From Oscillospiraceae bacterium (GTDB taxonomy: Bacteria; Bacillota; Clostridia; Oscillospirales; CAG-272), in the NCBI GenBank assembly GCA_015065365.1, contig SVQL01000001.1, positions 2,355 to 66,354 on the forward strand: a DNA stretch of 64,000 nt, given 5' to 3'. A program made the position numbers and the translations under genes. The notes under the pieces were generated by a model. It worked only from the letters and a program-made list of their open reading frames with translations, did no database searches and was not told the origin of the DNA. Shown here in pieces: positions 2,663-44,906 of this stretch (the first letter of the stretch is position 1; every line of letters begins with the position of its first letter).

Positions 2663-4111
2663 TTAGTCTAATGCTTCGATAGAATTAAACAGATTTTCAA
2701 TCTTGTTTTCGGTAGGCGTCTTAACGCCGTTGTACAATCCGGATATATCCTTAGTAGTATTAATGCTTTCAAGCAAAATCTTAGTCTTAAGATTTATCTG
2801 GCTTCCGTATACAAGACCGAAATCGAACACAAGGCTATTGATAACGACGTCTACCATTTCAGCGCAAACCTCGTCGTAGCTGCTCTTTACCTTACAAACG
2901 GTGTTGTAGTAGGTAGTCAGCGTAGTGTCCGAGGACTTCCACGACAAAACCTCTACCATAAACGCGGAGAAGTCAGCGTCTGCCGCGCAGGTAGGAATAC
3001 CGAAGGTCGCGCCGTAGGTATTGTCGTTAGTCGTATAATAGCGTCCCTGCTCTACGTCGTACATAGGATAAGGCAAGGGCGTATAAGAGAACTGTGCGTT
3101 CTCGCCCAAGCTTTCAATGGACGACAGCGAGGAAGCGTAGAAGAACGCTCTGCCGTCAAGGAAGGTATCGTGCGGGTCGTCGTAAGTACCAAACTTATTT
3201 CCACAGAAGGAAAGATCCTCGCTAAAGAGCTTTCTGAGCTCGGCGATACTGTTCATGGAATGCTCGTTAGCAACCTCAACTGACCAATTTTCTTCCTCGT
3301 CGAACGCAACTATCTTATTGTTAAGTCCGCTCCAGAAGGAGATCGGGAATTCCTTACCTCCCGCGACGAGTCCCCAGCTGTCGTCAAGGTCCATCTTGCC
3401 ATCTCCGCCGGGATCGCTCTTCGTATAGATAAGCATCTGCTCTATGGTCCACTGCTTGTCGCGAACCATCTGAACGATATCGGGATGCTGATTTTCAGAA
3501 CCGAGATCTCGGTTGTAGTACAAGGTGTTGATTCTTGCCTTGTCAACGAGTGAGAAGTCACTTACCATGTGGAACAGTCTGCCGCCGACTCTCATCGTCT
3601 CAAGAGTATCGGAGTCGTACCACTCGTTTGAAAAGTCTATATACGATACTGCGTCAAGGTCGTTCATATATCCGCTGGTAATTGCTGTTCCCATATAGTT
3701 GCGCGCCAAGAACGCCAAATCGTAGTCGTAATCGTCAGCGAGTATAACGTTTTTAAGCGCCTCCAGACCGTCGGCATCCTCCGTGTGGCTATCATCAACC
3801 GTAATAGTTACGTTGTAATACTCCTCGATCCAGTTGTTTCTGTGGTAAACGGTATCTGACATTATATCTCCGCCGAGCTCGCCAACAAGCTCAAAATTAG
3901 GCTCGTAGGGGTTGTTCAGAGCGAGAATATTAAAGTTTCTTCCGCCCCAGTCGTAGTGAGGAACGGGATCGGTAGCCGCTTCTTCGACGAGTCCCTGGGT
4001 TTCCGTTTCCTCGGGCTCGTCAACCGTACACGAAACGAAGGTCGTAAGTAAAAGCAACAGTGCAAGAAGCAAGCTGCCTATCTTTAAAAGCTTACTTTTT
4101 AAATTAGTCAT
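2663..4111 (-). CDS. Extracellular solute-binding lipoprotein (sugar-type ABC SBP), orphan
   Basis: Lipobox LLLLLTTFVSC. ~480-aa architecture and motifs (VGGRLFHMVSDFSL...LYYNRDL) typical of Firmicute family-1 SBPs. Its start overlaps the upstream stop by 8 nt (ATGACTAA). No permease or ATPase genes anywhere in the locus. Confidence 0.55.
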   Translation of the reverse strand: MTNLKSKLLKIGSLLLALLLLLTTFVSCTVDEPEETETQGLVEEAATDPVPHYDWGGRNFNILALNNPYEPNFELVGELGGDIMSDTVYHRNNWIEEYYNVTITVDDSHTEDADGLEALKNVILADDYDYDLAFLARNYMGTAITSGYMNDLDAVSYIDFSNEWYDSDTLETMRVGGRLFHMVSDFSLVDKARINTLYYNRDLGSENQHPDIVQMVRDKQWTIEQMLIYTKSDPGGDGKMDLDDSWGLVAGGKEFPISFWSGLNNKIVAFDEEENWSVEVANEHSMNSIAELRKLFSEDLSFCGNKFGTYDDPHDTFLDGRAFFYASSLSSIESLGENAQFSYTPLPYPMYDVEQGRYYTTNDNTYGATFGIPTCAADADFSAFMVEVLSWKSSDTTLTTYYNTVCKVKSSYDEVCAEMVDVVINSLVFDFGLVYGSQINLKTKILLESINTTKDISGLYNGVKTPTENKIENLFNSIEALD

Positions 4112-5879
4112 CTTTTCTTCTCCTTGAGGTTAAACCAACGACGCCTATTGCAGAAGCCATAACCATAGCCGCGCCGCACAGTCCGATAGAGCTGCCGCAG
4201 CCGCCCTTAGGCGCCTCGGTCTCGGGAGCGGGAGCAGCCTCGGTGTCCTTATTATCCTCTACCAATACGGGAGGCTTGTTTTGGGGCTTGGAGGATCCGC
4301 CGTCATCATTTTCGTTCTCGTTGCCGTCGTCCTCGGGAATGTCCATAGGAGGAGCCGCTTCATTTTCAGCAGCTATGAGAGCAACACCCTTGTATACGTT
4401 AAGGTCACTTACGGTTACTTCGGTCACGAAATACGAATAGAAGTAAATTCCAAGATAATCTCTAAAGAATACGGAAGGATCTTCAACAGGGCTGTACTGC
4501 TCGATAAGAAGCCATCTGCCCTCGGAGTCCTTTACGTACAAAGCGATCGTGGTATTATCGCCGTTGATCTCCATAGCGTACTCCTGAACGGAAGGATAGT
4601 TCTCCGTTCCGCCGTCGTATCCGGGAACGTAATCGCTAGTAAGCGTAGAGTAATCAACGTGAGAGTATCCGCTTACCGCGTTACCGTTTCTCTGCGGTCT
4701 TCCCTTGTTAGCATAGAAGTATCCGCCGTAGACACCGTCGATGAGCAATCCAAGCGGAACGTTGCTCGTACGGGTCATAGTAAACTTAACGGTGTAAGAA
4801 TATCCTGCGCCGAGAGGAAGTCCCTCGATGTCTGCGCCCCAAGCGGCGTTTTTCTTTTCGGTAACGCCTTCCTCGCCCGTAGGTCTTTCAGTAACCCTAA
4901 TGGTTACCTTGCCTGCGTCCTCGGAATCAACGTTTGCGGTGATATTATCGCAAGGCCACTCCCAACCTGCGTTTGCAGCAGCGGCTGCGTTGCTGGGCTT
5001 GAAGCAATCGTCAGCTCCGCTGAAGTCAGCAGAGTAAAGAAGTCCGCCCTCTTCAACTCCGTCCCACAAAGCCGTTGAGATTTCGGGTTCTTCGCCTTCA
5101 CCCTCGCCTTCACCCTCGCCACCTGCGGGAGGAGTAACGGCAGCATTTTCATTAGCTACAACCGATATGCCCTTGTATACGCATACGTCGCTAACGGTTG
5201 CTTCAGTTACGTAATACGAATAGAAATATAATCCAAGACGGTCTCTGAAAAATTCGGGCGGATCCTCCTTGGGAGTACCATCGTCTATCTTGCTCCATTT
5301 GCCGTCCTCGCCCTTTACGTACAAAGCAAACGTCGTATCGTCACCGTTTATCTCAATAACGTACTCCTGCTCTGTCTTTTCGGTATAATTAACCCAGCTA
5401 TGTCCTGTCAATGCGCTACCGTTTCTTTGAATTCGAGCCTTGTGTGCGTAGAAATAACCGCCGTGAGTGCCGTCAAACAGCAATCCGATAGGTTTTGCGT
5501 TATCTGCGCAGGAAACCTTGAACTTAATCGTATAGGAATATCCCTCGCCAAGAGGAAGATCGTCTACGTCCGCGCCCCAAGCAGTATTGTTCTGCGGTGT
5601 AACCTTAAAAGTCACTTTGCCGGAGTCCTCAGGATCAACCGTTGCGGTTATATTATCGCAAGCCCAGTTGTAGCCTGCGTTTGCGGCAGCAGTTTCGTTG
5701 CTGGGCTTGTAGCAGTCACCAGCGCCGCTAAAGTCAGCCTCGTAGAGAAGCGCTCCGTCCGCAGCAGCAGCGTAAATATCGTTCGTAGCCACGTCTGCAA
5801 ACGTCGCGATTGCCATGAAGGGTACGGTCATCATCAAGACCAATACCAATGCCAAAATTTTTTTCATTGTATTTTTCAT
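4104..5879 (-). CDS. Secreted protein with two lectin-like repeats and a C-terminal GGCG-helix-RRRKDD anchor/sorting signal
   Basis: Signal peptide MKNTMKKILALVLVLMMTVPFMAIATFA. Two ~230-aa internal repeats (LLYEADFSGAGDCYKPSN... and LLYSADFSGADDCFKPSN...), each ending VSDxxVYKG, joined by a (GE)n linker. The tail is KGGCGSSIGLCGAAMVMASAIGVVGLTSRRRKDD. Confidence 0.75.
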   Translation of the reverse strand: MKNTMKKILALVLVLMMTVPFMAIATFADVATNDIYAAAADGALLYEADFSGAGDCYKPSNETAAANAGYNWACDNITATVDPEDSGKVTFKVTPQNNTAWGADVDDLPLGEGYSYTIKFKVSCADNAKPIGLLFDGTHGGYFYAHKARIQRNGSALTGHSWVNYTEKTEQEYVIEINGDDTTFALYVKGEDGKWSKIDDGTPKEDPPEFFRDRLGLYFYSYYVTEATVSDVCVYKGISVVANENAAVTPPAGGEGEGEGEGEEPEISTALWDGVEEGGLLYSADFSGADDCFKPSNAAAAANAGWEWPCDNITANVDSEDAGKVTIRVTERPTGEEGVTEKKNAAWGADIEGLPLGAGYSYTVKFTMTRTSNVPLGLLIDGVYGGYFYANKGRPQRNGNAVSGYSHVDYSTLTSDYVPGYDGGTENYPSVQEYAMEINGDNTTIALYVKDSEGRWLLIEQYSPVEDPSVFFRDYLGIYFYSYFVTEVTVSDLNVYKGVALIAAENEAAPPMDIPEDDGNENENDDGGSSKPQNKPPVLVEDNKDTEAAPAPETEAPKGGCGSSIGLCGAAMVMASAIGVVGLTSRRRKDD

Positions 5880-5921
5880 AAAAAGCCTCCTTGTTTTTTT
5901 GAAAAAAATTTTTAATGCTTT

Positions 5922-6047
5922 TTAGAATGGGTCTTCCGCCCAGTTATCGAGAGTGTCGCTTCCGAATATGACAGAAAATACCATGATGTCCTTCGTGTCA
6001 AGATTTACGACGCTGAGCTCGGGAACGACGTATTTTTTATTTTTCAT
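5922..6047 (-). CDS. Conserved 41-aa micro-protein (MKNKKYVVPELSVVNLDTKDIMVFSVIFGSDTLDNWAEDPF), unknown function
   Basis: ATG at 6047 with AGGAGG 9 nt upstream; TAA at 5922-5924. The paralogue at 32321..32449 has 33/41 identical residues, and half of the codon differences are synonymous. Too short for the supplied ORF track. Confidence 0.6.
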   Translation of the reverse strand: MKNKKYVVPELSVVNLDTKDIMVFSVIFGSDTLDNWAEDPF

Positions 6048-6065
6048 AATACTGTTCCTCCTTAA

Positions 6066-9000
6066 TTAGTAAACGAATTTTGCATAAACGGGCAGATGGT
6101 CGGAGGGATATCTCATTACTCCGTCAACCTCATCCACCTTGTTGTTGATTACGGTATACTCGAGAGCCTCAGCGTTTCTGTATATGACGTGGTCGAAGAC
6201 ATACTTATTACGAACTGTGTAATCGGTTCCGTCAAGCGTACCGCCGGTGTCACCTGCAATGAGCGCCTCGTCTCTTGCGAAGGAGAGTCCGCTGTCGGAG
6301 TATCCGTTGAGAACGACCTTACCTTTAGCCGAGCTAACGTCTGCATTCATGTCACCGGTAAGTATCTGCGTAGGATACTGTGCTGCCTTTTCCGCAAGCC
6401 ATGCAGCGAGAAGTCTCGACTGATATTCACGCAAGAGATGGTCGTCATCACACTCCGAATCAGAGGAGCTGGTACCGTCACCGTAATGGAGGTGAGTATT
6501 TACGAAGAGTATTACCTCGCCGGTCGTCTTGTCTTTGAGAACTGCGTAGCTAAAGGTTCTTCCGATGTCCTCGTCAGAGAACCAGCCCTCGGCATCTCCC
6601 TGAACGTCGATAGACATATCTGTGCCCTCGTAGCCCTCAATGGTATAGTCGTCAGCAAGATTCTTGAAGGAATCCCAACCGGAGCTCACAAGAGTGAACT
6701 TCTCAGTCTTGTAGTATATATCGTTGAATGCCCAGCCGTTGCCGAACTTGTTAGTATATTTGTTGTACTGTCTGTTGCCGGCAAGATTTGCATAGCCATT
6801 GTTCTTGAGAACAGCGAGATAATCGTTCCAATCCTCGGTGTCCTCCTGGATTCCGACAACGTCGGGGTTAGCATCAAGGATCGTCTGAACTGCGTTTGCG
6901 GGGTTTCTTCCCTCCCAAACGTCGTCTCCCTTATACTCAAGGTTGTAGGACAATACGTTAATATAGGATTGCTTCTCTTCATTTTCTCCGTCTGCAGGAG
7001 TGAAGAAGCCTGTAAGTGTCTTCAATTCGTCTGCATCGTAGGGGCTGTAAACGGTAGTGCCTGCAATAACTACGGAGTTATTGTACTTCTCGTTGCTCTC
7101 AGTGCTAACATCGCCGTATGCAGCTCTTGCAACCTCGTCGATAGATCTGGAGTTGCTCTCCAAATCGAAATCAGCGTATTTATAGATCTCTCCGTTTACT
7201 TCAATAAATGCTCTTGCGGAGAACTCGCGGTTGTAGTTGCCCGCCTTAACGTTAACGAGCGCGCAGTTGATGGTATAGGAAGCAGGGTCTTCGTCTTCGT
7301 GAATAGTCGTTGCGTCTATCCTTACGTACTTAGCACCCGTAATAGCACCGCATGCGTCCAGAGCCGCCATTTCAAAGTCTACACCGTTATTAGTAAGATA
7401 GTCGGTAGGAGTAATGATCATACCGAGCTTAACATTATCCTCGCCGTAGGTCTCTCTCAAGGAGTCGATCACGGGCTTTGAGAATTCACTCTTGAAGCGG
7501 ATACCCGTAGGAACGCTAAGACGAACGGATGCGCCGGATACGTTCAATACCTTTCCAAACTTAAGTCCCTTGTATATCTTTACGTCGGAAACCTCAGTCC
7601 AAGAATCCGCGTCAGAAGTGCCGCTCAATTTTCTTGTATAAATTCTGCATTTCAATGTATCTTTAAGCGCTGAACCCTCATAGGTCATCGCTCTTACCTT
7701 GTTGAACGAACCGTCGGCATCCATGACGTAAAGAGTCAACGTATTGTACTCGGGATCAACCTCAACAGCAAACGTATGCTTCTCAGCCTTAGCCACGTCG
7801 GTACTGTAATTCCATTTGTCTTCGCCCTCATCCGACTTTTCTACCTTTTGAGTATTCCATTCCCACAGAGAGTTACAACCGAAGCCGTCAATAACAAGCG
7901 TCTGATTGCCATCCACCTGAATACCGAGTCCGTACTTGTTATATGCTGTGTTTCCGAACTCCAGATCAAACACGAGGGTGTAATTGTTGTTCTTGTATAC
8001 GGGAGCTGCGCCTGCTTCAACCTCATCGGGATTCAGAACCTCTCTGAGAGGATATCCGCTGTCAAGTCCGCCCCATATAGCGCGGTTATATGCCTTGCCA
8101 TCAATAAGGGTAATTCTTGCAGAGCTTCCGTCCTCGGAAATAACAGCTTCTGCGCCATTATTATTACTGTCGTAGAATCCCTGATGCCAATTAAAGCGAT
8201 CAGCGAAGTTGACGGTATGCAATAGATCGCCCTCGTTTGCGTTTGCGTACTCAGCAGCTCTGTCTTCCTTAACGGATATAGGCAAGCCCTTGTATATCTG
8301 CACGTTAGAAACATAAGTCCAAACGTCGCTGCCAGTCGTGTAGCTGCGCGTGTAAATTCTGCAACTCAATTCAGTGCCAAAGGACAATTCTTCGTATCTG
8401 GCAACCTCGTTAAACGTGCCGTCAAGGTCTACGATATAGAGGCTCATTACTCCGTTTTCAGGATCGACCTCAACCGCGAACTTCTGAGTTCCTTCCTTAG
8501 GACTCCACAAACCGTCGTAGTCCCACTGCTCGGTGGGATATTTTTCTGCGTCTGAACTACTGAGCTCGGTATTCCAATCCCACAGCTTAGTGTTTCCGTT
8601 TCCGTCAACGGTAATAGTGTAGCTTCCGTCCACCTGAATACCAACCAGCGTTTTACCTCCGGTCGTGCTTCCGAAATCCGCATCGAATATAACCGTATAT
8701 TTTCTGTAATTGCCGTATACGTCTATCGTTGCGCTGGGATCATCAGGATCCTCTGCCGTACCTACAACCTCCATAAGGGGATACGCACTCTTCAATCCGC
8801 CCCACATAGCGCGCTTCGAGCTTGAGCCCAATACGGCAAGTCTTGCGGAGCTTCCGTCCTTGGAAACGACTACGTCCGCGCCTCTGTTGGAGTCAGTTGC
8901 AAAATAACCGAGCCACTCAAGCGAGTTGAAATCGACGGTATTCAGAAGATCGCCAACCTCTGCGTTATCATACTCAGCAGCTCTGTCTACCGTTCCCGTT

Positions 9001-10433
9001 TCAATATCATTAACCAATCCCTTGTATATCAGTATATCCGAAATCTCATTCCAGGAAACGCCGCTTACTTTTCTAGCATAAACTCTGCAACTCAATTCAT
9101 CATTAAAAGATATGCCGCTATAGGTTTCTACCTCTACGTACGTGCCTTCGGCATTCTTAACGTAAAGAGTCATCGTTCCGGTAACGGTTCCGTCTTCAGG
9201 GTCAGTTCCGGTATCAGGGTCAATCTCAACGGCAAATGAATTCATCTCGTCATAACCGTTCGCTGCCTTATCTATCCAGTTGACCGTTCCCGTAGTGTTT
9301 TTGGTATTCCAACTGTACAAATAGGTAAGGCCATCGCTGGCGACAAGAACCGTTTTACTGTTATCCACCTGGATGCCTACTCCGGTTTTTCCGTCTTCGA
9401 ATCTCGCGTCAAAGGTGACCGTGTACGTTTCTCCGTTCGCGAGAGAAAAGCGTTCCGCAGATACAAGTCCGCCCCACATAGCACGACCATTTTTGGCACC
9501 AAAAACAGATTTAGACGTGTTATGTATCTCCTGCTTTAGCGATCTTCCGCTTGCGGAAACGTATACATAGGAATTCCAGTTGTTGTGGTCAGCATAATCG
9601 TCGCTCCAGGACGTATCGTTGAAGTTGATAGCCTTAAGCAGTTCTCCGTTCTCTGCCTCTGCGTACAGCTCAGAAGGAGTCATTTCAACAGCGTCGGGAG
9701 TAACGACCGTTCCGTTTACGGTAACCTCACCGATATCGATGCAGCCGTCCTTGCTGGGTGCGGTTACGGCGATAGCGAAATACTTTGCCGTGACACCCTG
9801 ACCTTCACCGTCACGAAGATCTATCTTATGACCAACTCTGAGGAAGCCGTCAACGGTCTTGGAAGCGTATGCGTCGTCACCCTCAGCGGGGAAGTTCGCG
9901 CCCGCGTTCGTTCCGTCTCCGCACATTTCGCTGAACTCCTTCAAAGCAGTCCAGGTCTCGCCGTCCGTGCTCACGAGGATTTCATATCCGTCGTTTATAC
10001 CCCAGCTTGAAGCAGGATTGCTCCATCTTGCAGCCTGATCGGCAGTATATCCGTTTCCGGCAATCCAAATAGTTACGTCGTCAAGCTCACTCGTGCCGTT
10101 AAGCTCGAATACGGCGTATCCGTAGTACAAGCACATTTCCGAATCTACGAAAAGACGCGTATTTGCAGCGGATATCGCATCCGACTCGTAGTACGGACGA
10201 GCGCTCCTTCCGTCGGCACTCTCATCGTAAGGGTCTCCGTCAATCATTCCCGCAACGGAGCCGTACGAAACGTGCAAATCCCAGTCGTCGTCGTATTTTG
10301 CAAACATCTTCACGTGCTTAATGCTCGCGGGAGTAATTTCAGCATCCTCCGCACTTGCGGGCAAAACTATGATTGGCATTGCCATCATCAAGACCAATAC
10401 CAAGCATAAAAGCTTCTTTGCAATCTTTTTCAT
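6066..10433 (-). CDS. Secreted 1455-aa multidomain protein: F5/8-type-C-like domain, 3 lectin-like repeats, beta-sandwich domain, C-terminal EEP phosphoesterase
   Basis: Start at MKKIAKKLLCLVLVLMMAMPIIVLPASA, with AGGAG 6 nt upstream (ORF-track start 10508 rejected). YEILVSTDGETWTAL is a discoidin-like motif. Three repeats each end xIYKGL. GASVRLSVPTGIRF marks the beta-sandwich domain. EEP motifs: VLSYNLE, VGIQED, VNTHLHYG, TGDMNAD, FDHVIY, PSDHLPV. Confidence 0.85.
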   Translation of the reverse strand: MKKIAKKLLCLVLVLMMAMPIIVLPASAEDAEITPASIKHVKMFAKYDDDWDLHVSYGSVAGMIDGDPYDESADGRSARPYYESDAISAANTRLFVDSEMCLYYGYAVFELNGTSELDDVTIWIAGNGYTADQAARWSNPASSWGINDGYEILVSTDGETWTALKEFSEMCGDGTNAGANFPAEGDDAYASKTVDGFLRVGHKIDLRDGEGQGVTAKYFAIAVTAPSKDGCIDIGEVTVNGTVVTPDAVEMTPSELYAEAENGELLKAINFNDTSWSDDYADHNNWNSYVYVSASGRSLKQEIHNTSKSVFGAKNGRAMWGGLVSAERFSLANGETYTVTFDARFEDGKTGVGIQVDNSKTVLVASDGLTYLYSWNTKNTTGTVNWIDKAANGYDEMNSFAVEIDPDTGTDPEDGTVTGTMTLYVKNAEGTYVEVETYSGISFNDELSCRVYARKVSGVSWNEISDILIYKGLVNDIETGTVDRAAEYDNAEVGDLLNTVDFNSLEWLGYFATDSNRGADVVVSKDGSSARLAVLGSSSKRAMWGGLKSAYPLMEVVGTAEDPDDPSATIDVYGNYRKYTVIFDADFGSTTGGKTLVGIQVDGSYTITVDGNGNTKLWDWNTELSSSDAEKYPTEQWDYDGLWSPKEGTQKFAVEVDPENGVMSLYIVDLDGTFNEVARYEELSFGTELSCRIYTRSYTTGSDVWTYVSNVQIYKGLPISVKEDRAAEYANANEGDLLHTVNFADRFNWHQGFYDSNNNGAEAVISEDGSSARITLIDGKAYNRAIWGGLDSGYPLREVLNPDEVEAGAAPVYKNNNYTLVFDLEFGNTAYNKYGLGIQVDGNQTLVIDGFGCNSLWEWNTQKVEKSDEGEDKWNYSTDVAKAEKHTFAVEVDPEYNTLTLYVMDADGSFNKVRAMTYEGSALKDTLKCRIYTRKLSGTSDADSWTEVSDVKIYKGLKFGKVLNVSGASVRLSVPTGIRFKSEFSKPVIDSLRETYGEDNVKLGMIITPTDYLTNNGVDFEMAALDACGAITGAKYVRIDATTIHEDEDPASYTINCALVNVKAGNYNREFSARAFIEVNGEIYKYADFDLESNSRSIDEVARAAYGDVSTESNEKYNNSVVIAGTTVYSPYDADELKTLTGFFTPADGENEEKQSYINVLSYNLEYKGDDVWEGRNPANAVQTILDANPDVVGIQEDTEDWNDYLAVLKNNGYANLAGNRQYNKYTNKFGNGWAFNDIYYKTEKFTLVSSGWDSFKNLADDYTIEGYEGTDMSIDVQGDAEGWFSDEDIGRTFSYAVLKDKTTGEVILFVNTHLHYGDGTSSSDSECDDDHLLREYQSRLLAAWLAEKAAQYPTQILTGDMNADVSSAKGKVVLNGYSDSGLSFARDEALIAGDTGGTLDGTDYTVRNKYVFDHVIYRNAEALEYTVINNKVDEVDGVMRYPSDHLPVYAKFVY

Positions 10434-10531
10434 GTTTTTCTCCTTTTTTGTTTTGTTTTTATTTTTAATAGCGTATATTTTTACGCCAATTAAATTAAAT
10501 ATAATCACTTAATATCGTTATTACCAAATAT

Positions 10532-11170
10532 TTACTCGTCTACGGTAATAGTACAGTACAACGCATAGTGGTCTGAAAGATCTGTTCCCGCAAGCGTAAA
10601 ATCGGTTACGGTAACACCCTTATATACGATATTATCGAGAGAGGAACCACTCTCGTACGTTGGCATTTTATCATCAGTGTTTCCGAGAGTGTAGCCCGCG
10701 TCGGTAAAGAGTTCAAACTCAGAGAATGAGTTAATGTTCCAGTCACCGAGAAGAACAACGTGCTCATATTGCTCACAATACTCAATAAGCTCTTTTAACT
10801 GATTGTTTATAATGTTCTTCGAGCCAAATGCCAGATGCGTGCTGACAAGCTTAACCGTCGTGCCGTTTATCACAAGGTCGGTGGTAACAAAATAATAATC
10901 GGCACCCTCAGGGGAATATTTTCCGAGCTTACCCAAATCCTTATTACACTCAAACTCGTGAACTTCAGGCTCGGATATCTCTATTCTGGAATATACCGCG
11001 TTACAGCTGTAATTGCGCTGAGGTCCCTCGTAAACGGTATCGTATCCCTTAAAAATTGTATCCTTTGCAAGATAGTTATTCTTTGTGAACTTTTTGCTGT
11101 ACTCGTTCAAGAACATAATATCTGCATCAATGGCATTATTGATATAGTCGCTGAAATCGGCGTTCTTCAT
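10532..11170 (-). CDS. EEP catalytic core lacking its first strand (downstream half of a split EEP lipoprotein gene)
   Basis: Motifs DADIMFLNEY, VSTHLAFG, LGDWNI, LDNIVY and LSDHYAL. The ATG overlaps the upstream TGA (ATGA at 11167-11170). The N-terminal WN strand is encoded by the preceding ORF in another frame. Confidence 0.6.
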   Translation of the reverse strand: MKNADFSDYINNAIDADIMFLNEYSKKFTKNNYLAKDTIFKGYDTVYEGPQRNYSCNAVYSRIEISEPEVHEFECNKDLGKLGKYSPEGADYYFVTTDLVINGTTVKLVSTHLAFGSKNIINNQLKELIEYCEQYEHVVLLGDWNINSFSEFELFTDAGYTLGNTDDKMPTYESGSSLDNIVYKGVTVTDFTLAGTDLSDHYALYCTITVDE

Positions 11171-12342: not shown

Positions 12343-12371
12343 ATTATACCATGGTTCGGTTTTGCTTTCAA
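12343..12371 (-). promoter_or_regulatory. Candidate sigma-A promoter of the locus-A operon (TTGAAA-17-TATAAT, TG-extended -10)
   Basis: On the minus strand, TTGAAA is at 12371-12366, followed by a 17-nt spacer and TGGTATAAT with -10 at 12348-12343. About 120 nt upstream of ATG 12219. Confidence 0.5.
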
Positions 12372-12465: not shown

Positions 12466-12494
12466 TTGACAAATAGCGAATAGGGTTGTATAAT
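12466..12494 (+). promoter_or_regulatory. Candidate sigma-A promoter of the AraC-type regulator (TTGACA-17-TATAAT)
   Basis: Perfect consensus hexamers with a 17-nt spacer, 67 nt before ATG 12561. Same arrangement as 38553..38581. Confidence 0.6.
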
Positions 12495-17247: not shown

Positions 17248-17853
17248 TCAATTATTTGAGCTTTTATTAAGTCTTTCTCCAACAGCTCCGCCGGGGTGAA
17301 TAAGAGCAAACTGCTCGTTTTGGTAGTCGGTCTCCTCAATGAGAGCCGTCTGCAACGAGTGGAATATCATACAGAGTGCCGTTGACGAGGTAGTTCCCTG
17401 CGCGTTGTACTTGTCCGTCTCTCTGTTAACGTACTGCTTTAGCACAACGTCAGCGCCGAGAGCCAAGGGAGATTCAAGATTTTCGGTAACGGTGATTATC
17501 TTTACTCCCTTTTTCTTGCATATCTCCATTATGGGTAAAAGCTCTGCGGTCTTGCCGCCACGGGAAGCAAACACCATAACGTCCCCTTCTTTTAGAAATC
17601 CCGTTCCGCCGTGTACGGCTTCTGCGGGAGAGATAAACTTTGCAGGCTGTTCTATGCAATTTAAGAGATGCACGAAGTGCTGACATATAATTCCCGAATG
17701 ACCGCAACCCGATGCGCCTATGCGCTCTGCGTTCTTCAGAAGTTCAACTGCTTTTGAAAATGAATCTTCGTCAAAGTATTCAAGCATTTCCTTTATACAC
17801 TCATACTCTATCTCATAGGCTGCCTTTGCCGCTTCAAGACTTTCTTTTCTCAT
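17248..17853 (-). CDS. SIS-domain sugar-phosphate isomerase (KpsF/GutQ-like, no CBS pair)
   Basis: GASGCGHSGIICQHF, VMVFASRGGKT and LIHPGGAVGERL. Start moved to MRKESLE to remove overlap with the upstream gene. Confidence 0.65.
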   Translation of the reverse strand: MRKESLEAAKAAYEIEYECIKEMLEYFDEDSFSKAVELLKNAERIGASGCGHSGIICQHFVHLLNCIEQPAKFISPAEAVHGGTGFLKEGDVMVFASRGGKTAELLPIMEICKKKGVKIITVTENLESPLALGADVVLKQYVNRETDKYNAQGTTSSTALCMIFHSLQTALIEETDYQNEQFALIHPGGAVGERLNKSSNN

Positions 17854-21100: not shown

Positions 21101-22507
21101 TTAGTCCTTTCTTGTATTTAATATATTGTCGTAATATTTATATCTTTCATAGCACTCGGTATAGTCCGTGCCAAGCGTTTTGAATGCTCTGTCAAGCTCT
21201 ATTGCCCTTGCCGCAGCTTCTACGGACTCAAATGCGCCGATGCCTACTCCTGCAAGTATTGCAGTACCGAGGCAAGCGGTTTCCTTATTCTTAAGAGTTA
21301 CGAGCCTCTTATCCGTCATATCCGCCATCATCTGACACCAAAGGGGGCTGTTAGCTCCGCCGCCCATGGCTCTTATCTCGTCCACGTCAAGTCCAAGGTA
21401 TTCAAGGTTTGCCTTAAGCATACAAGCCACCGACTCCATAACACTGCGAATGAAATGACCTCTCGTATGCTCTGCGGTAAGTCCCGTAAAGCTTCCTCTT
21501 GCATCGGGGTTATACTTAGGCATAGTCGAGCCACAGAGATAGGGCAAGAACGTAAGACCGTCGCTGCCAGCGTTTACGTTCTCAGCAAGTCCGTCAAGCT
21601 CGGCAAAGCTGAAGTTCTCGCAAAGTGCGTTTCTGAACCACTTAAGTGCCATACCCGCAGTAGGTGTCCAAGAGAGTAAGCAATACTTATCGTCGTAATT
21701 GTAGTGACAAGGAACAATACTCTTTTCATCGTATTCAGGGACTGTTTCCGAGGGCATAAATATGACCATCGTCGTTCCCGTCATAACGCTGACGATTCCC
21801 TGCTTTACCACACCCGCGCCGATAGCGCCCGCTATCTGGTCGATAGCTCCCGTGACTACCTTTATGCCGTCATACTCTCCCACAAGCGTTGCGCTTGAAT
21901 GGAGCGCGGGGAGCATATTTTCTTTTACGCCGATAAAGTCAAGCATCTCGCTCCACCACTGACCTTTATGTATGTCAAAGTAGATGGTAGAGGATTGAAG
22001 CGTTTTTTCGGTTATAAACTTACCAGTGAGCTTATAGAGTATCCAATCTTCAAGAAGAAATACTCTTTCTGTTCTCTCCCATATCTCAGGTCTGTTTCTC
22101 TTTACCCACAAGAGCTTACAAGCGGGCCACGTTGCCGTGATCTCAGGCTGTCCCGTCACCTCGTACACTCTTTTGTGTCCGAAATATTCCGCTATTATCT
22201 CGGCTTCCGCAGTTGCTCTGTTGTCAAGCCAGACGATAGCGGGGCAAAGAGGATTGCCCTCTTTGTCCGCCAAAATTAGCGTTTCGCACTGCGTGTCAAC
22301 GGCAAGGGCATCTATCTTGCATACTGCCTTTGCCTTTTCTATCTCGGATTTGACTATGCTCCAATAGCTTTCTGCATCGAACTCAACTATATCTCCGTGT
22401 GTGTCGAGAGTATAGTCTGCCGTGGAGCTATGTAAGCATTTCAGCTTATCGTCAAACGCCGCCGACTTTACAGACGTCGTGCCTATATCGATTCCTAACA
22501 GATTCAT
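21101..22507 (-). CDS. FGGY-family carbohydrate kinase (xylulokinase-like)
   Basis: MNLLGIDIGTTSVKSA..., GAIDQIAGAIGAG and GGGANSPLWCQMMADM. Confidence 0.85.
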   Translation of the reverse strand: MNLLGIDIGTTSVKSAAFDDKLKCLHSSTADYTLDTHGDIVEFDAESYWSIVKSEIEKAKAVCKIDALAVDTQCETLILADKEGNPLCPAIVWLDNRATAEAEIIAEYFGHKRVYEVTGQPEITATWPACKLLWVKRNRPEIWERTERVFLLEDWILYKLTGKFITEKTLQSSTIYFDIHKGQWWSEMLDFIGVKENMLPALHSSATLVGEYDGIKVVTGAIDQIAGAIGAGVVKQGIVSVMTGTTMVIFMPSETVPEYDEKSIVPCHYNYDDKYCLLSWTPTAGMALKWFRNALCENFSFAELDGLAENVNAGSDGLTFLPYLCGSTMPKYNPDARGSFTGLTAEHTRGHFIRSVMESVACMLKANLEYLGLDVDEIRAMGGGANSPLWCQMMADMTDKRLVTLKNKETACLGTAILAGVGIGAFESVEAAARAIELDRAFKTLGTDYTECYERYKYYDNILNTRKD

Positions 22508-24003
22508 TCTGCACCTCTATCAAACATCTTGTTGATTTCCTCAACGGTTTTTCTGACGAGAATATCTCCGCCCTCGTGTCCCGTTACACCGCTAGAAACG
22601 TATGCGGAATAGTGACCGCCTCGCTCTGCCTTCTCTGTGGGAAGATATCCGTGAGCACCGCAAGCAAGCTGAATGAGGAAGGTCTGTTGAGCCTTGCTTC
22701 TCGCTCTTATCTGATTACCGAAGTCAAGGAAAAGCTCAAAGGAGCTGGTTGCAAAGGCAATGTCTCCAAGTCTGGCGATATGCACCTCCACAGGATACAG
22801 GTCGTGATTTTCCTGCGCCGTGTATCTTGCAATAGTTCCCGCATAAACGTGCATAGCCGCATTGTCAGCAAAGCTTATTTCTTCCGCCTTTACGGCAAAT
22901 TCCTCAATTCTGCGCTTTGCCGCCTCGTACTCCGCGGGAGTTACTCTGCGCACAGGCATATCAAGCATCATAACCTTATGGCAGAACAAGCCTTCGGATT
23001 GCAATTCCTCTTTGTTTATATCGTCGTATACGTCAATTATCTCTCGGGAAATTCTCTTTCCGATTCTCCACGTTCCCTTAATATCGTACATAGAGGGATC
23101 GGCTTTTCTCAAAATTACGTTTTCTCTTATAACGTTAGGATCCTTGATGGGAGTTTCGGGGTCAACCCATCTGATAAGATCACGGGGACACTGGTCGCCT
23201 GCGGGCGAGCAAAGTCCGAGCACATAGAGATTTTCTCCAAATCTCTCGCGGAGCAGTATCTTCACCTTACCCCAGTAATCCGAGGAAATAAAGCTTCTCT
23301 GCTCAAGCACCTGCGAGGGGCATGCGACGTTCGCGACTATACCCGTAAGCTCCTTATTTTCGTCAAAGGTATATATAAGCTCTATTCCGGAATCGTTGCC
23401 GCCCTCAAGCTCGGTAAAAGTCGCCGTGTTTGTGTCTCCCCACATCTTTGCGCTTCCGTCGCTGTAACAAACTCTGCGATTCATTCCAACTGCGACTCTG
23501 CCAAAATCATTGGTATAATACGCGGGCTTTCTCTGCTCCCACGCGCTCTTTGCCGCTTCGGAAATCTTATCAGCAAGCCAATACAGCGCATCGCGATCGT
23601 CCATAACGTCGGGATCAGACTGAGCGGGTGCCTCATTCTGCTTACCGCACGCCTCTGACAAAAGCTGCGCCAAAATACCGAGCGACGTACCGAGGTCTAT
23701 TTTCCTTTTACTGTAATAGTCTATTGAGGTATGCGAATGGGTTGCGTGAATTATAACGTTGTTCGCGTCAAGACCGTCAACGTCTGCAAGTCTTGCACGA
23801 GTCTCTGCTACGAGATTGTCGCCTATTCCCTCAAGGTCGCACGAGCAAATAACCATCTGCGAGCCACTCGCTTCAATAGCCATAGCCGTAACGGTTATCT
23901 CCGTTTCAACGTATTCGGAAATTCTTTCGTAAAACTGTCCCGCAAGATAAACCTTTTTCTCGGGAGTTATACTTACCTCTGACCAACCTAATTTCAAGCT
24001 CAT
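22504..24003 (-). CDS. Conserved hypothetical hydrolase-like protein (possibly neutral-ceramidase-N-like fold); paralogue of 43210..44682
   Basis: The N-terminus LKLGWSEVSITPEKKVYLAGQF...VTAMAIEA...CSCDL resembles ceramidase_alk-type N-domains, a weak call from memory. Long blocks are shared with the paralogue (GGNDSGIE, GDQCPRDLIRWV.PETPIKDPNVIR). Confidence 0.35.
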   Translation of the reverse strand: MSLKLGWSEVSITPEKKVYLAGQFYERISEYVETEITVTAMAIEASGSQMVICSCDLEGIGDNLVAETRARLADVDGLDANNVIIHATHSHTSIDYYSKRKIDLGTSLGILAQLLSEACGKQNEAPAQSDPDVMDDRDALYWLADKISEAAKSAWEQRKPAYYTNDFGRVAVGMNRRVCYSDGSAKMWGDTNTATFTELEGGNDSGIELIYTFDENKELTGIVANVACPSQVLEQRSFISSDYWGKVKILLRERFGENLYVLGLCSPAGDQCPRDLIRWVDPETPIKDPNVIRENVILRKADPSMYDIKGTWRIGKRISREIIDVYDDINKEELQSEGLFCHKVMMLDMPVRRVTPAEYEAAKRRIEEFAVKAEEISFADNAAMHVYAGTIARYTAQENHDLYPVEVHIARLGDIAFATSSFELFLDFGNQIRARSKAQQTFLIQLACGAHGYLPTEKAERGGHYSAYVSSGVTGHEGGDILVRKTVEEINKMFDRGAE

Positions 24004-29538: not shown

Positions 29539-30810
29539 TCAATATATATCGACTTTAGCGAGAACGGGTAGATGGTCTGAGGGATATTTGCCGTTTTTAA
29601 TATTATTTACGACGGTATAATATCTGGTGTATACTGTATCGGTTGTAACGAAAATATAATCGAAAACGTAGGGGTGTCTTTTAGTAAAATTGCCTTCTAT
29701 CAAGGTAGGTCCCGTATCTCCTTTGACCTTCGCAACCTTTGAGGTCATGCCAAAATTCGGATTATCCCCCATAAAGTCGAGAAGAGCACTGCCGCTCACG
29801 GTCGTAGTAGTATTAAAGTCACCGAGAACTATAACGGGAAGATCGTCCTTGTTAACCTTCTTGATAAGCGCCGCAAGCGCGTCTATCTGCTTAACTCTGA
29901 CTTCCTCAGTTGCCCGATAATCGAGGTGTGTATTGATGAAAAGGAATTGCTTTCCCGTTTTATTTTCTTCAAGAACGACGTAAGTCATGGTACGGTATTG
30001 GTTTGAGCCCTCGTATTTTGATTTCCTCTCGGGAGTATCGCTGAGGAAATAGTATCCCTTTCGCTTAACGGTAAATCTATCCTTTTTCCAATAGATATGG
30101 TTGCCCTCGTCAATGTCTCCCTTATAAAGGTCGTAGGTTTTGAGGTTTTCAATAAAGTATTTGCTATGCCCCGTACCGTCCTCCTGAGTTCCGAGAACGT
30201 CTACGTCATTCTCAAGAATAGTTGTAACCATTCTAAGTCTGCAATTTGACTCTCTGCCCTCTTTATTCATATCAAAGAGAATATTATAGGTCATCACGTT
30301 CAAGGAAGGACTGTTCAGATCTTGAATTTCATATCCCGATATTGAAATTTCCTTGCTTTCCTCGTCTCCCGTTGCTTTTGCAAGAAATGCGTCGATAACC
30401 TGACAAAGAGCGCTGTAATTCGCGCCCAACAAAACTATCTTTTTGCCGGTAACGCCGATCAAGCCGCTTTGATTTTGCGCGTACGCCGCCGCAATAGCCT
30501 CGTCGTCCCCATCAAGACCTATCAAAATCTCAGGGCGGTCTTCATTTGAGAGCTCCACCTCAAGGGTAGTGCCATAAAGCGCCTCCAGCTTTTTGTTCAA
30601 ATATACGAACGCCCTTCCTGATCCGGTAATGGCGCTGTTTGAGCATACGACCGTATAGTCCTTCAAGGCAACGCCGTTGATAATCAGCGGACCAGTCACC
30701 GTCGGCGCCTGAGTTTCGGTTTCCTCCGTATTGCCGTTGTTACAGCCAAGAACTGCGGGCAAAAGCATAATCAATGCCAACAAAAAGCTTAAAAATCTTA
30801 TTTTTCTCAT
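29539..30810 (-). CDS. EEP family lipoprotein (intact paralogue of 41..1350)
   Basis: Lipobox LLPAVLGC. ~170-aa N-terminal domain shared with 41..1350 (…LCQVIDAFLAKAT). EEP motifs VMTYNIL, LGTQED, INTHLDY, LGDFNT, FDYIFVT and PSDHLPVL. Confidence 0.85.
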   Translation of the reverse strand: MRKIRFLSFLLALIMLLPAVLGCNNGNTEETETQAPTVTGPLIINGVALKDYTVVCSNSAITGSGRAFVYLNKKLEALYGTTLEVELSNEDRPEILIGLDGDDEAIAAAYAQNQSGLIGVTGKKIVLLGANYSALCQVIDAFLAKATGDEESKEISISGYEIQDLNSPSLNVMTYNILFDMNKEGRESNCRLRMVTTILENDVDVLGTQEDGTGHSKYFIENLKTYDLYKGDIDEGNHIYWKKDRFTVKRKGYYFLSDTPERKSKYEGSNQYRTMTYVVLEENKTGKQFLFINTHLDYRATEEVRVKQIDALAALIKKVNKDDLPVIVLGDFNTTTTVSGSALLDFMGDNPNFGMTSKVAKVKGDTGPTLIEGNFTKRHPYVFDYIFVTTDTVYTRYYTVVNNIKNGKYPSDHLPVLAKVDIY

Positions 30811-31131: not shown

Positions 31132-32274
31132 TCAGTCTTCTTTTCTCTTGATTACGAGAGCCGCGCCGGAAGCGAGTGCTATCATAGCAACGCCTGCAAT
31201 TCCGATAGAGCCGCCGCATCCGCCTGCAGCTGCCTCAGTCTCGGGAGCAGGAGCAGCATCGGTGTTAGCCTCAGTATTTGCGTCGGTTTCGGGAGTCGTG
31301 TTGGTGTTGTTATTCTCGTTGTTATTCTCGTTGTTATTCTCGTTGTTCTCGCCGTTGTTCTCATTGCCGTTCTCCTCGCCGCCTTCTTCGCCGGCAGAGG
31401 GTACGTCTAATTCGGGAGCAGCAAGCTCGTGCTCGGTAACTGCAAGTCCCTTGTATACACTAACGTTGTGAACCTCCATAGTAAGGAACTGCTCGGGGGT
31501 AACGTTGTCGCGTCCGAAACGGATAACGTATTCCCAGTTATCGTAAGCCCAACCGTGGCTCTCCTTAATCATCTGTGCGTCAACAGGCTCATCTTCCATC
31601 GAGAAGATCAATTCCCATGCGCCGTCCTTAACGACGTAAACATTATAAACGGTAATGTTATATACGAATCCAGCAGTGGTTTCGGTATTCATAGCGCCTT
31701 CGGGATGCTCACCGGTACCCTCGTCCTTGATTTCGATAGCGTAGGTCTGGGTCAAAGCAGCGTCACCGGTAGGTCCGTCGTATTCAACCGTAAACTTGGT
31801 GCTATCGTATTTTCCGCCCGCGTTTACAACGTAGGACAGGGTGTTCTTACCGGGAGTAAAGAAGAAGCCGGTTCTCCAGTCGGGATAGTATCCTATCGCC
31901 TGATTTTCATCCTCAGCGCTGAGAGTGAATACGGTGGTATAAGCGCTCTGGTGCATAGTGAATCCACTACCGGGCAAACGTCCGCCGTAACCACTTGTGT
32001 GACCCTCGTTTTTGACATCAGTCTGGGGAATGTAGGTAAAGGACATTCCGTCCTCTGAGACCTCAACGTTAGCGCCTGCCCAAGTAGCCGTAACGCCGAA
32101 GTATTCCTTGTTGTTGAAGTCTACGTTAGCGATAAGCTCGCCGTCTTCAACTGCGCCGTAGTTTTCGGGGAGCGACACCTCGCTGTTCTCTGCGAATGCC
32201 GCGATTGCCATGAAGGGCACGGTCATAAGAGTAACCAATGCCAAAGCCAAAATTTTTTTCATTGTGTTTTTCAT
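31132..32274 (-). CDS. Secreted single-repeat lectin-like protein with N/E-rich linker and C-terminal GGCG-helix-KRKED signal
   Basis: Start at MKNTMKKILALALVTLMTVPFMAIAAFA (AGGAGG RBS; ORF-track start 32358 rejected). Repeat motifs YTTVFTLSAEDENQAIGYYPDWRTGFFF, QTYAIEIKDEG and VSVYKGLAV. The tail is AAGGCGGSIGIAGVAMIALASGAALVIKRKED. Confidence 0.8.
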   Translation of the reverse strand: MKNTMKKILALALVTLMTVPFMAIAAFAENSEVSLPENYGAVEDGELIANVDFNNKEYFGVTATWAGANVEVSEDGMSFTYIPQTDVKNEGHTSGYGGRLPGSGFTMHQSAYTTVFTLSAEDENQAIGYYPDWRTGFFFTPGKNTLSYVVNAGGKYDSTKFTVEYDGPTGDAALTQTYAIEIKDEGTGEHPEGAMNTETTAGFVYNITVYNVYVVKDGAWELIFSMEDEPVDAQMIKESHGWAYDNWEYVIRFGRDNVTPEQFLTMEVHNVSVYKGLAVTEHELAAPELDVPSAGEEGGEENGNENNGENNENNNENNNENNNTNTTPETDANTEANTDAAPAPETEAAAGGCGGSIGIAGVAMIALASGAALVIKRKED

Positions 32275-32320
32275 AAAAAACCTCCTTAAAATTTTATTGA
32301 AAAAAATTTGTTTACTGTTT

Positions 32321-32449
32321 TTAGAATGGGTCTTCCGCCCAGTTATCGAGACTGTCATTTCCGAATATTACGGAAAATATCATAATATCCTTCGTATCAA
32401 CAGTAACGACTCTCATTTCGGGAGAAACGTATTTTTTATTGCTTTTCAT
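32321..32449 (-). CDS. Conserved 42-aa micro-protein (MKSNKKYVSPEMRVVTVDTKDIMIFSVIFGNDSLDNWAEDPF), paralogue of 5922..6047
   Basis: ATG at 32449 with AGGAGG 9 nt upstream; TAA at 32321-32323. Same position between the EEP gene and the GGCG-tail gene as in locus A. Confidence 0.6.
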   Translation of the reverse strand: MKSNKKYVSPEMRVVTVDTKDIMIFSVIFGNDSLDNWAEDPF

Positions 32450-32463
32450 TTTTTCATTCCTCC

Positions 32464-33300: not shown

Positions 33301-33305
33301 CGCTG

Positions 33306-44682: not shown

Positions 44683-44906
44683 ATCTTCTCCTTTAAGCTT
44701 TAAGATTTTTACTGAATTATAGCACACTCATACCGCTTTTTCAATACTTTTGAAAGAAAAAGTTACTTTTTTTAATATGCGTTATTCACAGATATATTTT
44801 ATTCTTAAACTAATTCTTCAAAGCGAATTTATATTAAAACCCGTACATACGGAATATCGTCTCCACCATCAAGAAAATTGAAAACTTCAAACGGTTCAGC
44901 CGCTTG

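Follow-up and report, generated by a model that had tools for sequence, protein, structure and literature searches.

Described small precursor peptides and partners of secreted proteins

Lasso peptide precursors (LasA type, for example fusilassin TfuA, paeninodin PadeA and the predicted rumen Firmicute LasA peptides) consist of a leader with the motif YxxPxL (PMC6784204), which binds RRE proteins as an added beta-strand (PMC5067487), and a core. Their leaders carry a conserved Thr at the penultimate position, although a penultimate Ile variant is known (PMC10368454), and the precursors are encoded next to the genes B1 (PqqD), B2 (transglutaminase-like) and C (Asn-synthase-like). In rumen Firmicutes, lasso clusters are further accompanied by accessory genes including an HprK-like kinase, an ABC exporter and an NTP_transf_5 gene (PMC7533575). 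Other small proteins that invite comparison are the Gram-positive pheromone precursors without signal peptide (ComX, SHP/XIP), the cognate intracellular inhibitors or escort proteins of secreted enzymes (barstar-type immunity proteins, secretion chaperones), and the ANR/Aar-type small negative regulators of AraC-family activators.

Here we analyzed a 64,000 nt stretch of contig SVQL01000001.1 of an Oscillospiraceae bacterium (GCA_015065365.1), referred to as the window, in which a sequence-only reading had pointed out a 41-codon ORF between a lectin-EEP giant gene and a gene for a GGCG-tail protein, with a paralogue at the corresponding position of a second locus. We found that this ORF is a real, selected gene from a large, unnamed family of small acidic peptides in gut and rumen Clostridia. 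These peptides look like natural product (lasso/RiPP) precursors, yet their genes almost always lie directly behind the gene for a giant, usually secreted protein.

Two copies of a small gene under purifying selection

Copy A (5922..6047, minus strand; 41 codons plus TAA stop) encoded MKNKKYVVPELSVVNLDTKDIMVFSVIFGSDTLDNWAEDPF. A Shine-Dalgarno sequence AGGAGG (6062..6057) was found 9 nt before the ATG and started 3 nt after the TAA stop (6068..6066) of the upstream EEP giant. Copy B (32321..32449, minus strand) encoded 42 aa, and its AGGAGG (32464..32459) overlapped the TAA stop codon of the upstream EEP ORF. The two copies shared 33 of 41 residues with one codon indel. Sixteen codons differed, 8 of them synonymously, and the last 9 codons plus the stop were identical. 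The flanking genes had diverged much further, with 44.6% identity between the EEP domains and 28% between the downstream proteins, against 78-80% for the peptide. High nucleotide identity between the two copies continued, however, through the spacer and the signal peptide codons of the next gene, and part of the likeness is therefore probably due to gene conversion. The argument for selection thus rests on the other copies and on the wider family.

Six distinct DNA copies (window copies A and B, and those of loci L001-L004; L numbers denote the loci fetched for comparison) kept the frame. Variable columns by codon position were 12, 9 and 30 of 42 each (binomial p = 1.7e-4) and pairwise dN/dS was 0.07-0.19. 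Change was mostly synonymous from T18 onwards, and the last 8 codons, encoding DNWAEDPF, varied only at third positions. A conserved DNA or RNA element, or a conversion tract that happens to be open, is therefore refuted by the codon position pattern. Rfam also gave no match, the best hit being RAGATH-19 at 25 bits against a gathering score of 85.6. The antisense frame in codon register was free of stops in all six copies, but the substitutions would fall on its first positions, and the only plus-strand ORFs in this region (5815..5925 and 5953..6069) were in other frames. An extension of the EEP gene by read-through was likewise rejected, since copy A and the L013 copy were in frame with the EEP gene (TAA plus 6 codons) whereas copy B and the L005 copy were not.

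A large unnamed family with two-part conservation

The sequence-only reading could not place the peptide in any family. This was correct for curated libraries, as we found no match to Pfam-A, NCBIfam, PHROGs or PADLOC for the two window peptides and only scattered hits at E >= 0.005 for 39 family members. An exhaustive profile search nevertheless retrieved 17 hits, which increased to 40 clusters and finally to 3,532 clusters at the loose cut-off of E<=10, with relatives down to about 30% identity keeping the frame and the same residues. Copy A matched the family HMM with E = 4.9e-22. The 120 listed members were 35-67 aa long and none was fused to another domain; a hit of 5,774 aa (P0004; P numbers denote protein hits) was a repeat artefact. 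A tblastn search of a plasmid collection, a scan of JGI metagenomes with the narrow alignment and a literature search for the motif strings gave nothing relevant.

Members of the family have an invariant N-terminal segment (KKYxxPxΦ…D[VI][IM]TxS) and a variable acidic, aromatic tail with a median net charge of -5. In copy A, residues 1-25 (5973..6047, minus strand), MKNKKYVVPELSVVNLDTKDIMVFS, represent the conserved, leader-like segment, in which Y6, P9, D20 and S25 were invariant among 98 family members. Residues 26-41 (5925..5972, minus strand), VIFGSDTLDNWAEDPF, represent the core-like segment, which was the most conserved part in the EEP-linked clade; the boundary between the two is inferred. 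AlphaFold2 with a 98-sequence alignment predicted an extended chain with no fold (pLDDT 80, pTM 0.26), as would be expected for a peptide that binds by strand addition. By inspection, the peptide does not have a Sec or lipoprotein signal peptide, since E10, D17, K19 and D20 interrupt the segment following MKNKK and the longest uncharged run is 10 residues, starting at residue 21.

Genomic context

In 30 of 32 sampled loci the ORF started 13-78 nt after the stop of a large co-directional ORF, usually encoding a secreted protein; one locus was undeterminable and L044 was the exception. A Shine-Dalgarno core was present at -8 to -22 (mostly -11 to -16) in all 19 family loci examined. In the window, the gene upstream of copy A (6066..10508, minus strand) encodes a secreted giant with a signal peptide (MKKIAKKLL…) starting at the ATG at 10433, repeated lectin-like modules, an unnamed domain X of ~190 aa (about 6990..7559) and a C-terminal EEP domain (about 6093..6953). 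Upstream of copy B (32464..36830, minus strand) we found a lectin-X ORF (33306..36830) and an EEP ORF (32464..33300) joined by a conserved -1 frameshift cassette (33306..33349), with the predicted junction peptide …NLLNFFSTKGTGEYTCSLTAMTYNIEGK. A promoter-like site at 12343..12371 (minus strand; 11 of 12 matches, TG extension), divergent from the AraC promoter at 12466..12494 (plus strand), probably drives the whole minus-strand operon containing copy A. No terminator-like site was found on the minus strand between 12219 and 2663; this is a consensus scan only.

The tail motif tracked the class of the upstream protein. DN[WY]xxD[PV]F followed an EEP domain end in 11 of 11 distinct loci, and PGTETTP…GIWDL was found behind '…KY..SA.AYR' ends in 11 of 13. 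A domain shared by all upstream proteins was not detected. Domain X was found in the EEP-type and L018-type proteins only, its comparison with the '…SA.AYR' domain Y gave an hhalign probability of 0.3%, and neither domain is in Pfam.

The downstream gene, in contrast, was not constant. It was replaced by other genes in L001 and L027, and in L026 and many short contigs the ORF ended the operon, followed only by a convergent gene or a terminator-like hairpin. Among the roles suggested by the sequence-only reading, a partner of the GGCG-tail protein is therefore the weakest. The same synteny largely refutes a regulatory upstream ORF or arrest peptide acting on the next gene, which we consider very unlikely, although the ORF lies 42 nt upstream of that gene and its conserved C-terminal W…D-P-F-stop is somewhat reminiscent of TnaC-type arrest peptides. 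The spacer was A/T-rich, of variable length, without conserved structure and not conserved beyond close relatives, the downstream gene has its own strong Shine-Dalgarno sequence, and many members carry extra residues after DPF.

Feedback on the adjacent AraC regulator, also suggested by the sequence-only reading, was neither shown nor excluded, but appears unlikely. Small anti-activator proteins act on some AraC regulators, and an AraC-family gene was found within 10 kb in most long loci (both window loci, L005, L006, L013, L017, L018, L022, L025 and L026, plus L031). Paralogous lipoproteins with weak similarity to solute-binding proteins were also encoded in both window loci (2663..4111 and 36867..38342). 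However, L020 has two family ORFs and no AraC gene within 10 kb, AraC regulators are common in clostridial sugar loci anyway, and the ORF is tied to the giant gene and not to the regulator gene. ANR proteins are helical, about 60-70 aa long and found in Gram-negative pathogens, and show no sequence or structural likeness to the peptide. The pheromone precursors ComX and SHP/XIP are likewise small ORFs without Sec signal, whose own active part is probably C-terminal, but they are encoded beside their regulator or modifying enzyme and not behind a giant exoenzyme gene. SHPs are hydrophobic whereas these peptides are strongly acidic, and no ComQ-, Rgg- or PptAB-type gene was found here.

Comparison with lasso and other RiPP precursors

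The peptide resembles lasso precursors in size (35-55 aa), in the basic N-terminus followed by aromatic-x-x-P-x-hydrophobic, and in the acidic core with bulky aromatic residues. The leader motif reads Y6-V-V-P9-E-L11 in the window peptide, and position 11 was I, M or L in 84% of the 98 members. The only PDB hit of the family profile was the leader of fusilassin TfuA (6jx3_A), but with E = 1.7. Thr two or three residues before the predicted cut is shared by the wider family (T23 in 89%, T24 in 62% of members), but the window copies read D-I-M-V/I-F-S and lack it. The leader is also 4-5 residues longer (…DVITTS), and, if Ser25 is core residue 1, the large PGTETTP subfamily has no Asp/Glu at core positions 7-9, whereas D31 is residue 7 in both window copies, a match that is likely by chance in such acidic tails. 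The family HMM did not score published rumen lasso precursors above shuffled controls, apart from two scoring 10.7 and 9.8 bits against a shuffle maximum of 9.1, so that the likeness to lasso leaders is at motif level only.

One relative, P0085 in L044, was found in a RiPP-type cassette, between an HprK-like kinase gene and a PqqD gene, an S26-like peptidase, an ABC exporter and an NTP_transf_5 gene. P0085 shares about 73% of its 22 leader residues with the giant-linked P0103. The PqqD and peptidase hits were below NCBIfam cut-offs, although the precomputed Pfam table lists PF05402 (PqqD) for that protein, and the contig ends before any cyclase could appear. This was the only biosynthetic cassette among 32 sampled contexts. 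No PqqD, protease, cyclase or exporter gene was found in the 64-kb window, nor in the roughly 436 kb of fetched loci other than L044, as judged from precomputed Pfam tables of the annotated loci and tblastn, which do not cover machinery acting in trans. Lasso precursors, moreover, are not wired to giant secreted-protein genes, and scattered RiPP precursors wired to enzyme operons are to our knowledge without precedent.

Possible function of the peptide

The core claim of the sequence-only reading, a translated and selected micro-protein with its own ribosome-binding site in both loci and more conserved than its large neighbours, holds, and its suggestion of a processed peptide gained real support. 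As a tentative explanation, which we favour without considering it more likely than not, the ORF is translated from the same mRNA as the lectin-EEP giant and its product is a free, extended, acidic precursor with a leader (residues 1-24/25) of the kind bound by PqqD-type RiPP recognition proteins (K-K-Y-x-x-P-x-hydrophobic … D-Φ-Φ-T/V-x-S) and a locus-specific core. A PqqD-like chaperone encoded elsewhere in the genome might bind the leader, which might be cut next to the invariant Ser25. T/V at -3 and S at -1 would fit a signal peptidase-type site, releasing VIFGSDTLDNWAEDPF, whereas T/V at -2 with Ser as the first core residue would fit a lasso-type site, releasing SVIFGSDTLDNWAEDPF. The short core might then be exported at the same time as the giant enzyme and act outside the cell on or with its C-terminal EEP module as a ligand, latch or reporter. 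Export, cleavage and binding to the enzyme are all inferred.

The main rival, less likely in our view but still possible, is a cytoplasmic escort or inhibitor, in line with the inhibitor or chaperone of the EEP enzyme proposed by the sequence-only reading. The tail would bind the last-made C-terminal module of the upstream pre-protein, here the EEP phosphodiesterase domain, and keep it unfolded or inactive until export, while the common N-terminal half would dock on a shared factor such as the export machinery. The position behind the secreted-protein gene, with the Shine-Dalgarno sequence abutting or overlapping its stop, the position as last gene of the operon in L026 and several short contigs, the tail motif tracking the upstream C-terminal domain, the lack of a signal peptide and the extended, binding-prone chain are consistent with this. 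The peptide was also not found fused to the secreted protein although only about 14 nt separate them, as expected if the two must end up in different compartments. This reading does not explain, however, why the N-terminal half matches a RiPP leader or why a relative lies beside a PqqD, peptidase and ABC exporter. Other EEP genes in the same loci (for example 29539..30810 and 10532..11170) have no such ORF, and the upstream proteins share no detectable common domain. Known inhibitors and escorts of this type are likewise small acidic proteins co-transcribed immediately after a secreted hydrolase gene, with a specificity that follows the partner's class. They are, however, folded proteins of 80 aa or more, and none has this sequence, whereas here we found no autonomous fold and a shared leader-like half, and many partners are not hydrolases (Big_5 and LRR giants).

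Implications for gut and rumen Clostridia

The family comprises up to about 3,500 clusters at 90% identity in public metagenomes at the loose cut-off, and none of the members looked up carried a GenBank protein accession or product name. For the window ORF, the accession numbering of the neighbouring genes appears to leave no slot, which is an inference. Whichever function applies, genome mining tools that look for precursors only beside maturation enzymes are missing these peptides. A more speculative, less likely but still possible reading is that gut and rumen Clostridia carry many orphan lasso-type or other RiPP precursor genes, each hard-wired behind a different giant secreted enzyme or adhesin gene and all matured in trans by one PqqD/peptidase/exporter set. 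The resulting small, stable peptides would serve as dedicated extracellular partners (latches, inhibitors, anchors or expression reporters) of those proteins rather than as antibiotics, which would be a new use of RiPP chemistry and a new layer of control in polysaccharide-degrading loci. If the peptides are processed and exported, they link RiPP biosynthesis with the giant surface enzymes of fibre- and glycan-degrading Clostridia, two fields that have not met, and would offer short, predictable peptides to look for in gut and rumen peptidomes. If instead they are cytoplasmic escorts or inhibitors, they define a new class of partner-specific mini-chaperones for very large secreted proteins.

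Coding potential of the two micro-ORF copies

The minus strand of positions 5922..6047 encoded the peptide MKNKKYVVPELSVVNLDTKDIMVFSVIFGSDTLDNWAEDPF. AGGAGG was located at 6062..6057, nine bases before the ATG and three bases after the TAA stop of the 1,480-codon lectin-EEP gene. The second copy was located at 32321..32449 and read MKSNKKYVSPEMRVVTVDTKDIMIFSVIFGNDSLDNWAEDPF, and its AGGAGG overlapped the stop codon of the preceding EEP ORF. The sequence-only reading had counted 33 identical residues out of 41 with one codon indel, 16 differing codons of which eight were silent, and identity of the last nine codons and the stop, and all of these counts were correct. The neighbouring genes have diverged much further, with 44.6% aa id between the EEP domains and 28% between the downstream proteins. 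A six-frame HMM search found exactly these two family members in the window.

Relatives were found in a MAG of a related species (Eubacteriales SGB_5258, five copies) and in many metagenome contigs. Six distinct DNA versions kept the frame, with 12, 9 and 30 variable alignment columns at codon positions 1, 2 and 3, respectively (binomial p = 1.7e-4), and with pairwise dN/dS values of 0.07-0.19. The motif DNWAEDPF changed only at third positions. Every one of the 19 loci examined showed a Shine-Dalgarno core 8-22 nt (mostly 11-16 nt) upstream, usually abutting the upstream stop codon. The antisense frame in codon register was also free of stops, but the substitutions would hit its first codon positions and no plus-strand ORF with a start codon spanned it in that register, and it is not the gene. 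No Rfam family matched, and the spacer to the next gene was not conserved outside close relatives. A non-coding explanation is essentially excluded.

Near-identical DNA between locus A, which holds the first copy, and locus B, which holds the second, spanned the 3' third of the micro-ORF, the spacer and the signal-peptide codons of the next gene (~5790..5950 versus ~32190..32345, minus strand), while the rest of both flanking genes was only 28-45% identical at the protein level. This looks like a gene-conversion tract, and the two window copies have probably exchanged sequence. The case for selection rests on the wider set. The fetched locus L004, which showed a locus-A-type context but a peptide with a B-like N-terminal half, points the same way. 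In locus A (5922..6068, minus strand) and in the fetched locus L013 (449..592) the micro-ORF was in frame with the EEP gene and separated from it only by TAA and six codons (…KFVY*LRRNSIMKNKKY…), so that stop read-through would append it to the enzyme. This was not conserved in locus B, the fetched locus L005 or others and is probably coincidence.

A large family of small acidic peptides

An exhaustive profile search of 1.84 billion representative proteins returned 17 hits, of which 16 were proteins of 38-49 aa and the other was a repeat artefact. Iterated word-index searches gave 40 clusters and then 3,532 clusters at E<=10. The 120 listed members were 35-67 aa in length, and none had a Pfam domain or any name beyond 'hypothetical protein'. 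Pfam, NCBIfam, PHROGs and PADLOC gave no match, and none of the members that we looked up carried a GenBank protein accession. The window comes from a Ruminococcaceae/Oscillospiraceae MAG in which the neighbouring genes have the accessions MBE6706011 and MBE6706015, and the intervening numbers seem to be taken up by the three larger genes between them. As inferred from this numbering alone, the small ORF is probably unannotated in that record.

In an alignment of 98 members the residues Y6, P9, D20 and S25 were invariant, with the consensus (M)KKY[VI]xPE[IML]x[VI][VI]x[LFV]xTxD[VI][IV]TTS[PG]…, after which the sequences became variable but stayed acidic and aromatic. Median net charge was -5, and Cys occurred in only 6 of 98 members. 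Subfamilies differed in the tail, which read DN[WY]xxD[PV]F in the subfamily of this window, PGTETTPKDExDGIWDL or DGYDNFENDPF in others, with further types besides. Within the clade of the window the pattern was reversed: the tail from T18 onward showed mostly silent change and the last eight codons (DNWAEDPF) only silent change, whereas the non-motif positions of the N-terminal half changed freely. AlphaFold2 with the 98-sequence alignment predicted an extended chain with no secondary structure (pLDDT 80, pTM 0.26).

Single contigs can carry two divergent family ORFs, each behind a different large protein. Examples are the fetched loci L020 (8246..8365 and 10001..10132), with an LRR giant of 2,154 aa and a 420-aa protein, and L018 (10001..10135 and 17621..17779), with a Glug-type protein of 1,217 aa and a 593-aa protein. 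The L020 copy behind the LRR giant showed Ala in place of the otherwise invariant Pro.

Genomic context

Both window copies were located inside long minus-strand gene blocks that are transcribed divergently from an AraC-family gene. Locus A encoded a lipoprotein-like protein of 350 aa, an EEP protein of 212 aa, the giant, the ORF, a GGCG-tail protein, a lipoprotein of 482 aa, a pectate-lyase-like protein and an EEP protein. Locus B encoded a lipoprotein of 491 aa, a lectin-X protein of 1,174 aa, an EEP protein of 278 aa, the ORF, a GGCG-tail protein, an EEP protein of 423 aa and GH39, followed by sugar-acid catabolism genes. Related loci added GH31, a GDE_C/GH94-like protein (L005, L013) and a GDPD phosphodiesterase (fetched locus L022). 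This combination suggests breakdown of phosphodiester-linked glycans such as teichoic-acid-like or phosphoglycan substrates, although this is an inference only. The lipoproteins of 482 and 491 aa (2663..4111 and 36867..38342, minus strand), one in each locus, were unnamed paralogues with 25% aa id, with only a weak SBP_bac_8 hit and no permease genes nearby. A second pair of unnamed paralogues of 499 and 505 aa (22504..24003 and 43210..44727, minus strand) shared 52% aa id and showed no obvious signal peptide and no Pfam match.

Across 32 sampled loci one feature was constant. In 30 of them the ORF started 13-78 nt after the stop of a large co-directional ORF, while one locus was undeterminable and one, L044, was different. 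Where the N-terminus of the upstream ORF was visible, it usually had a signal peptide. The downstream gene was not constant, being a GGCG-tail protein in many DNW-type loci, another EEP in L027, a 728-aa protein with no obvious signal peptide in L001 and a convergent gene in L026, while terminator-like hairpins followed in many short contigs. A regulatory upstream ORF is essentially excluded as well. The GGCG-tail proteins of the window ended in a conserved sorting-signal-like tail (4104..4215 and 31132..31240, minus strand) with an acidic, Thr-rich linker, then G-G-C-G-[GS]-S-I-G, one hydrophobic helix and an R/K-rich …KED end. The same tail was found in L003, L004, L005, L013, L015 and L017, and no NCBIfam or Pfam model matched it.

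The tail motif of the peptide followed the class of the upstream protein. All 11 distinct DN[WY]xxD[PV]F loci followed a …SDHxPV… EEP C-terminus, and of 13 PGTETTP…W[DE] loci 11 followed a C-terminus of the form …F.KY..SA.AYR…. The upstream proteins did not share one detectable domain, and other EEP genes in the same loci had no such ORF. An unnamed domain of about 190 aa (X: GASVRL.xPTGIRF … NSRS..EVA.AAY … YSPY) without a Pfam match was located between the lectin modules and the EEP domain (~6990..7559 and ~33330..33900, minus strand), and was also present in the non-EEP proteins of L018 that are followed by family ORFs. A cytoplasmic escort or inhibitor of the C-terminal module of the upstream enzyme is the main rival to the precursor reading developed below. 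It explains the synteny and the absence of fusions equally well, but not the leader, and we consider it unlikely though not negligible. Feedback on the AraC regulator is weakened by L020, which has two family ORFs and no AraC gene within 10 kb, and is considered still less likely.

An apparent -1 frameshift cassette in locus B

In locus B the 1,174-aa lectin-X ORF and the EEP ORF were joined by what looks like a textbook -1 programmed frameshift signal (33306..33349, minus strand). The EEP ORF had no signal peptide and no Shine-Dalgarno sequence. The signal consisted of U UUU UUU in the zero frame (33348..33342), a 7-nt spacer, a 12-bp stem-loop (33335..33308, -21 kcal/mol) and the zero-frame stop as the stem ends (TGA, 33308..33306). 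A -1 slip reads …NLLNFF|STKGTGEYTCSLTAMTYNIEG…, which reconstitutes the architecture of the unsplit locus-A giant. The same cassette, with a 9-12 bp GGGAACAGG…CCTGTTCCC stem-loop, changes that preserve the stem and a zero-frame stop in or just after the stem, was present in three other loci: L003 (~6090..6140), L015 (~3680..3727), whose lectin ORF was only 39.5% identical, and L001 (~6440..6490), where the EEP frame has ATT instead of ATG and so cannot start on its own. Such a cassette would yield both a lectin-only product and a lectin-EEP fusion. This also means that the ORF in locus B follows the C-terminal EEP domain of a secreted giant, as in locus A.

Similarity to RiPP leader peptides

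K-K-Y-x-x-P-x-L is the motif by which lasso-peptide leaders are recognised by PqqD-type B1 proteins (PMC6784204), and binding is by addition of a beta-strand (PMC5067487). The only hit of the family profile in the PDB sequence set was 'TfuA-Leader' (6jx3_A), which aligned MEKKKYTAPQLA to profile positions 1-11, but at E = 1.7. The decisive lead came from one family member, P0085 (MEKYVVPEMEIIKFETEDVITTSNGGGNDPSLNLLSDGPNA), which scored 50 bits with E = 4e-8 against 5.8 billion sequences. By manual count, about 73% of its 22 leader residues were identical to those of the giant-linked family member P0103.

In L044 (9200..14844), an unidentified metagenome contig, the gene for P0085 was located in a RiPP-type cassette just after a capsule/EPS glycosyltransferase cluster. 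The gene order was an HprK-related P-loop kinase, the peptide gene, a PqqD protein (PF05402; the lasso-type PqqD NCBIfam model scored E = 1e-7, below its cut-off), an S26 signal-peptidase-like protein, an ABC exporter, a 318-aa coiled-coil membrane protein and an NTP_transf_5 protein. HPr-kinase-like, PqqD and nucleotidyltransferase genes are the typical companions of lasso clusters in rumen Firmicutes (PMC7533575). No Asn-synthase-like cyclase was visible before the contig ended. The invariant Ser25 with T/V at position 23 fits two readings, either a signal-peptidase -3/-1 site, which would give the core VIFGSDTLDNWAEDPF, or a lasso-type site with T/V at -2 and Ser as the first core residue, which would put D31 at ring position 7.

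Homologues of the L044 machinery were absent from the window and from the other 43 fetched loci (436 kb were searched in all, L044 included), and the Pfam survey of the whole window showed no RiPP enzyme or exporter. The family HMM scored the 26 rumen lasso precursors taken from Table 3 of PMC7533575 on the whole no better than shuffled versions, for which the mean was -1.3 and the maximum 9.1 bits. The window copies lacked the Thr pair, and the largest subfamily had no acidic residue at core positions 7-9. We therefore do not assign the peptide to the lasso precursors. We do conclude, however, that its N-terminal half is leader-like, of the RiPP type, and that it appears to work as a leader in at least one relative.

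The closest known systems are lasso and other RiPP precursor peptides, with which the family shares the leader motif, the size, the acidity and one cassette context. It differs from them in the strict attachment to giant secreted-protein genes, the absence of neighbouring maturation genes and the failure of two lasso rules in the window copies. The family itself was undescribed in every library and paper collection searched. Although whole genomes carrying these ORFs were not searched for PqqD-type cassettes, the evidence best fits, as a tentative explanation, a leader-plus-core precursor peptide made together with the giant enzyme. It would be processed and exported by machinery encoded elsewhere, and its core would act on or with the C-terminal module of that enzyme.
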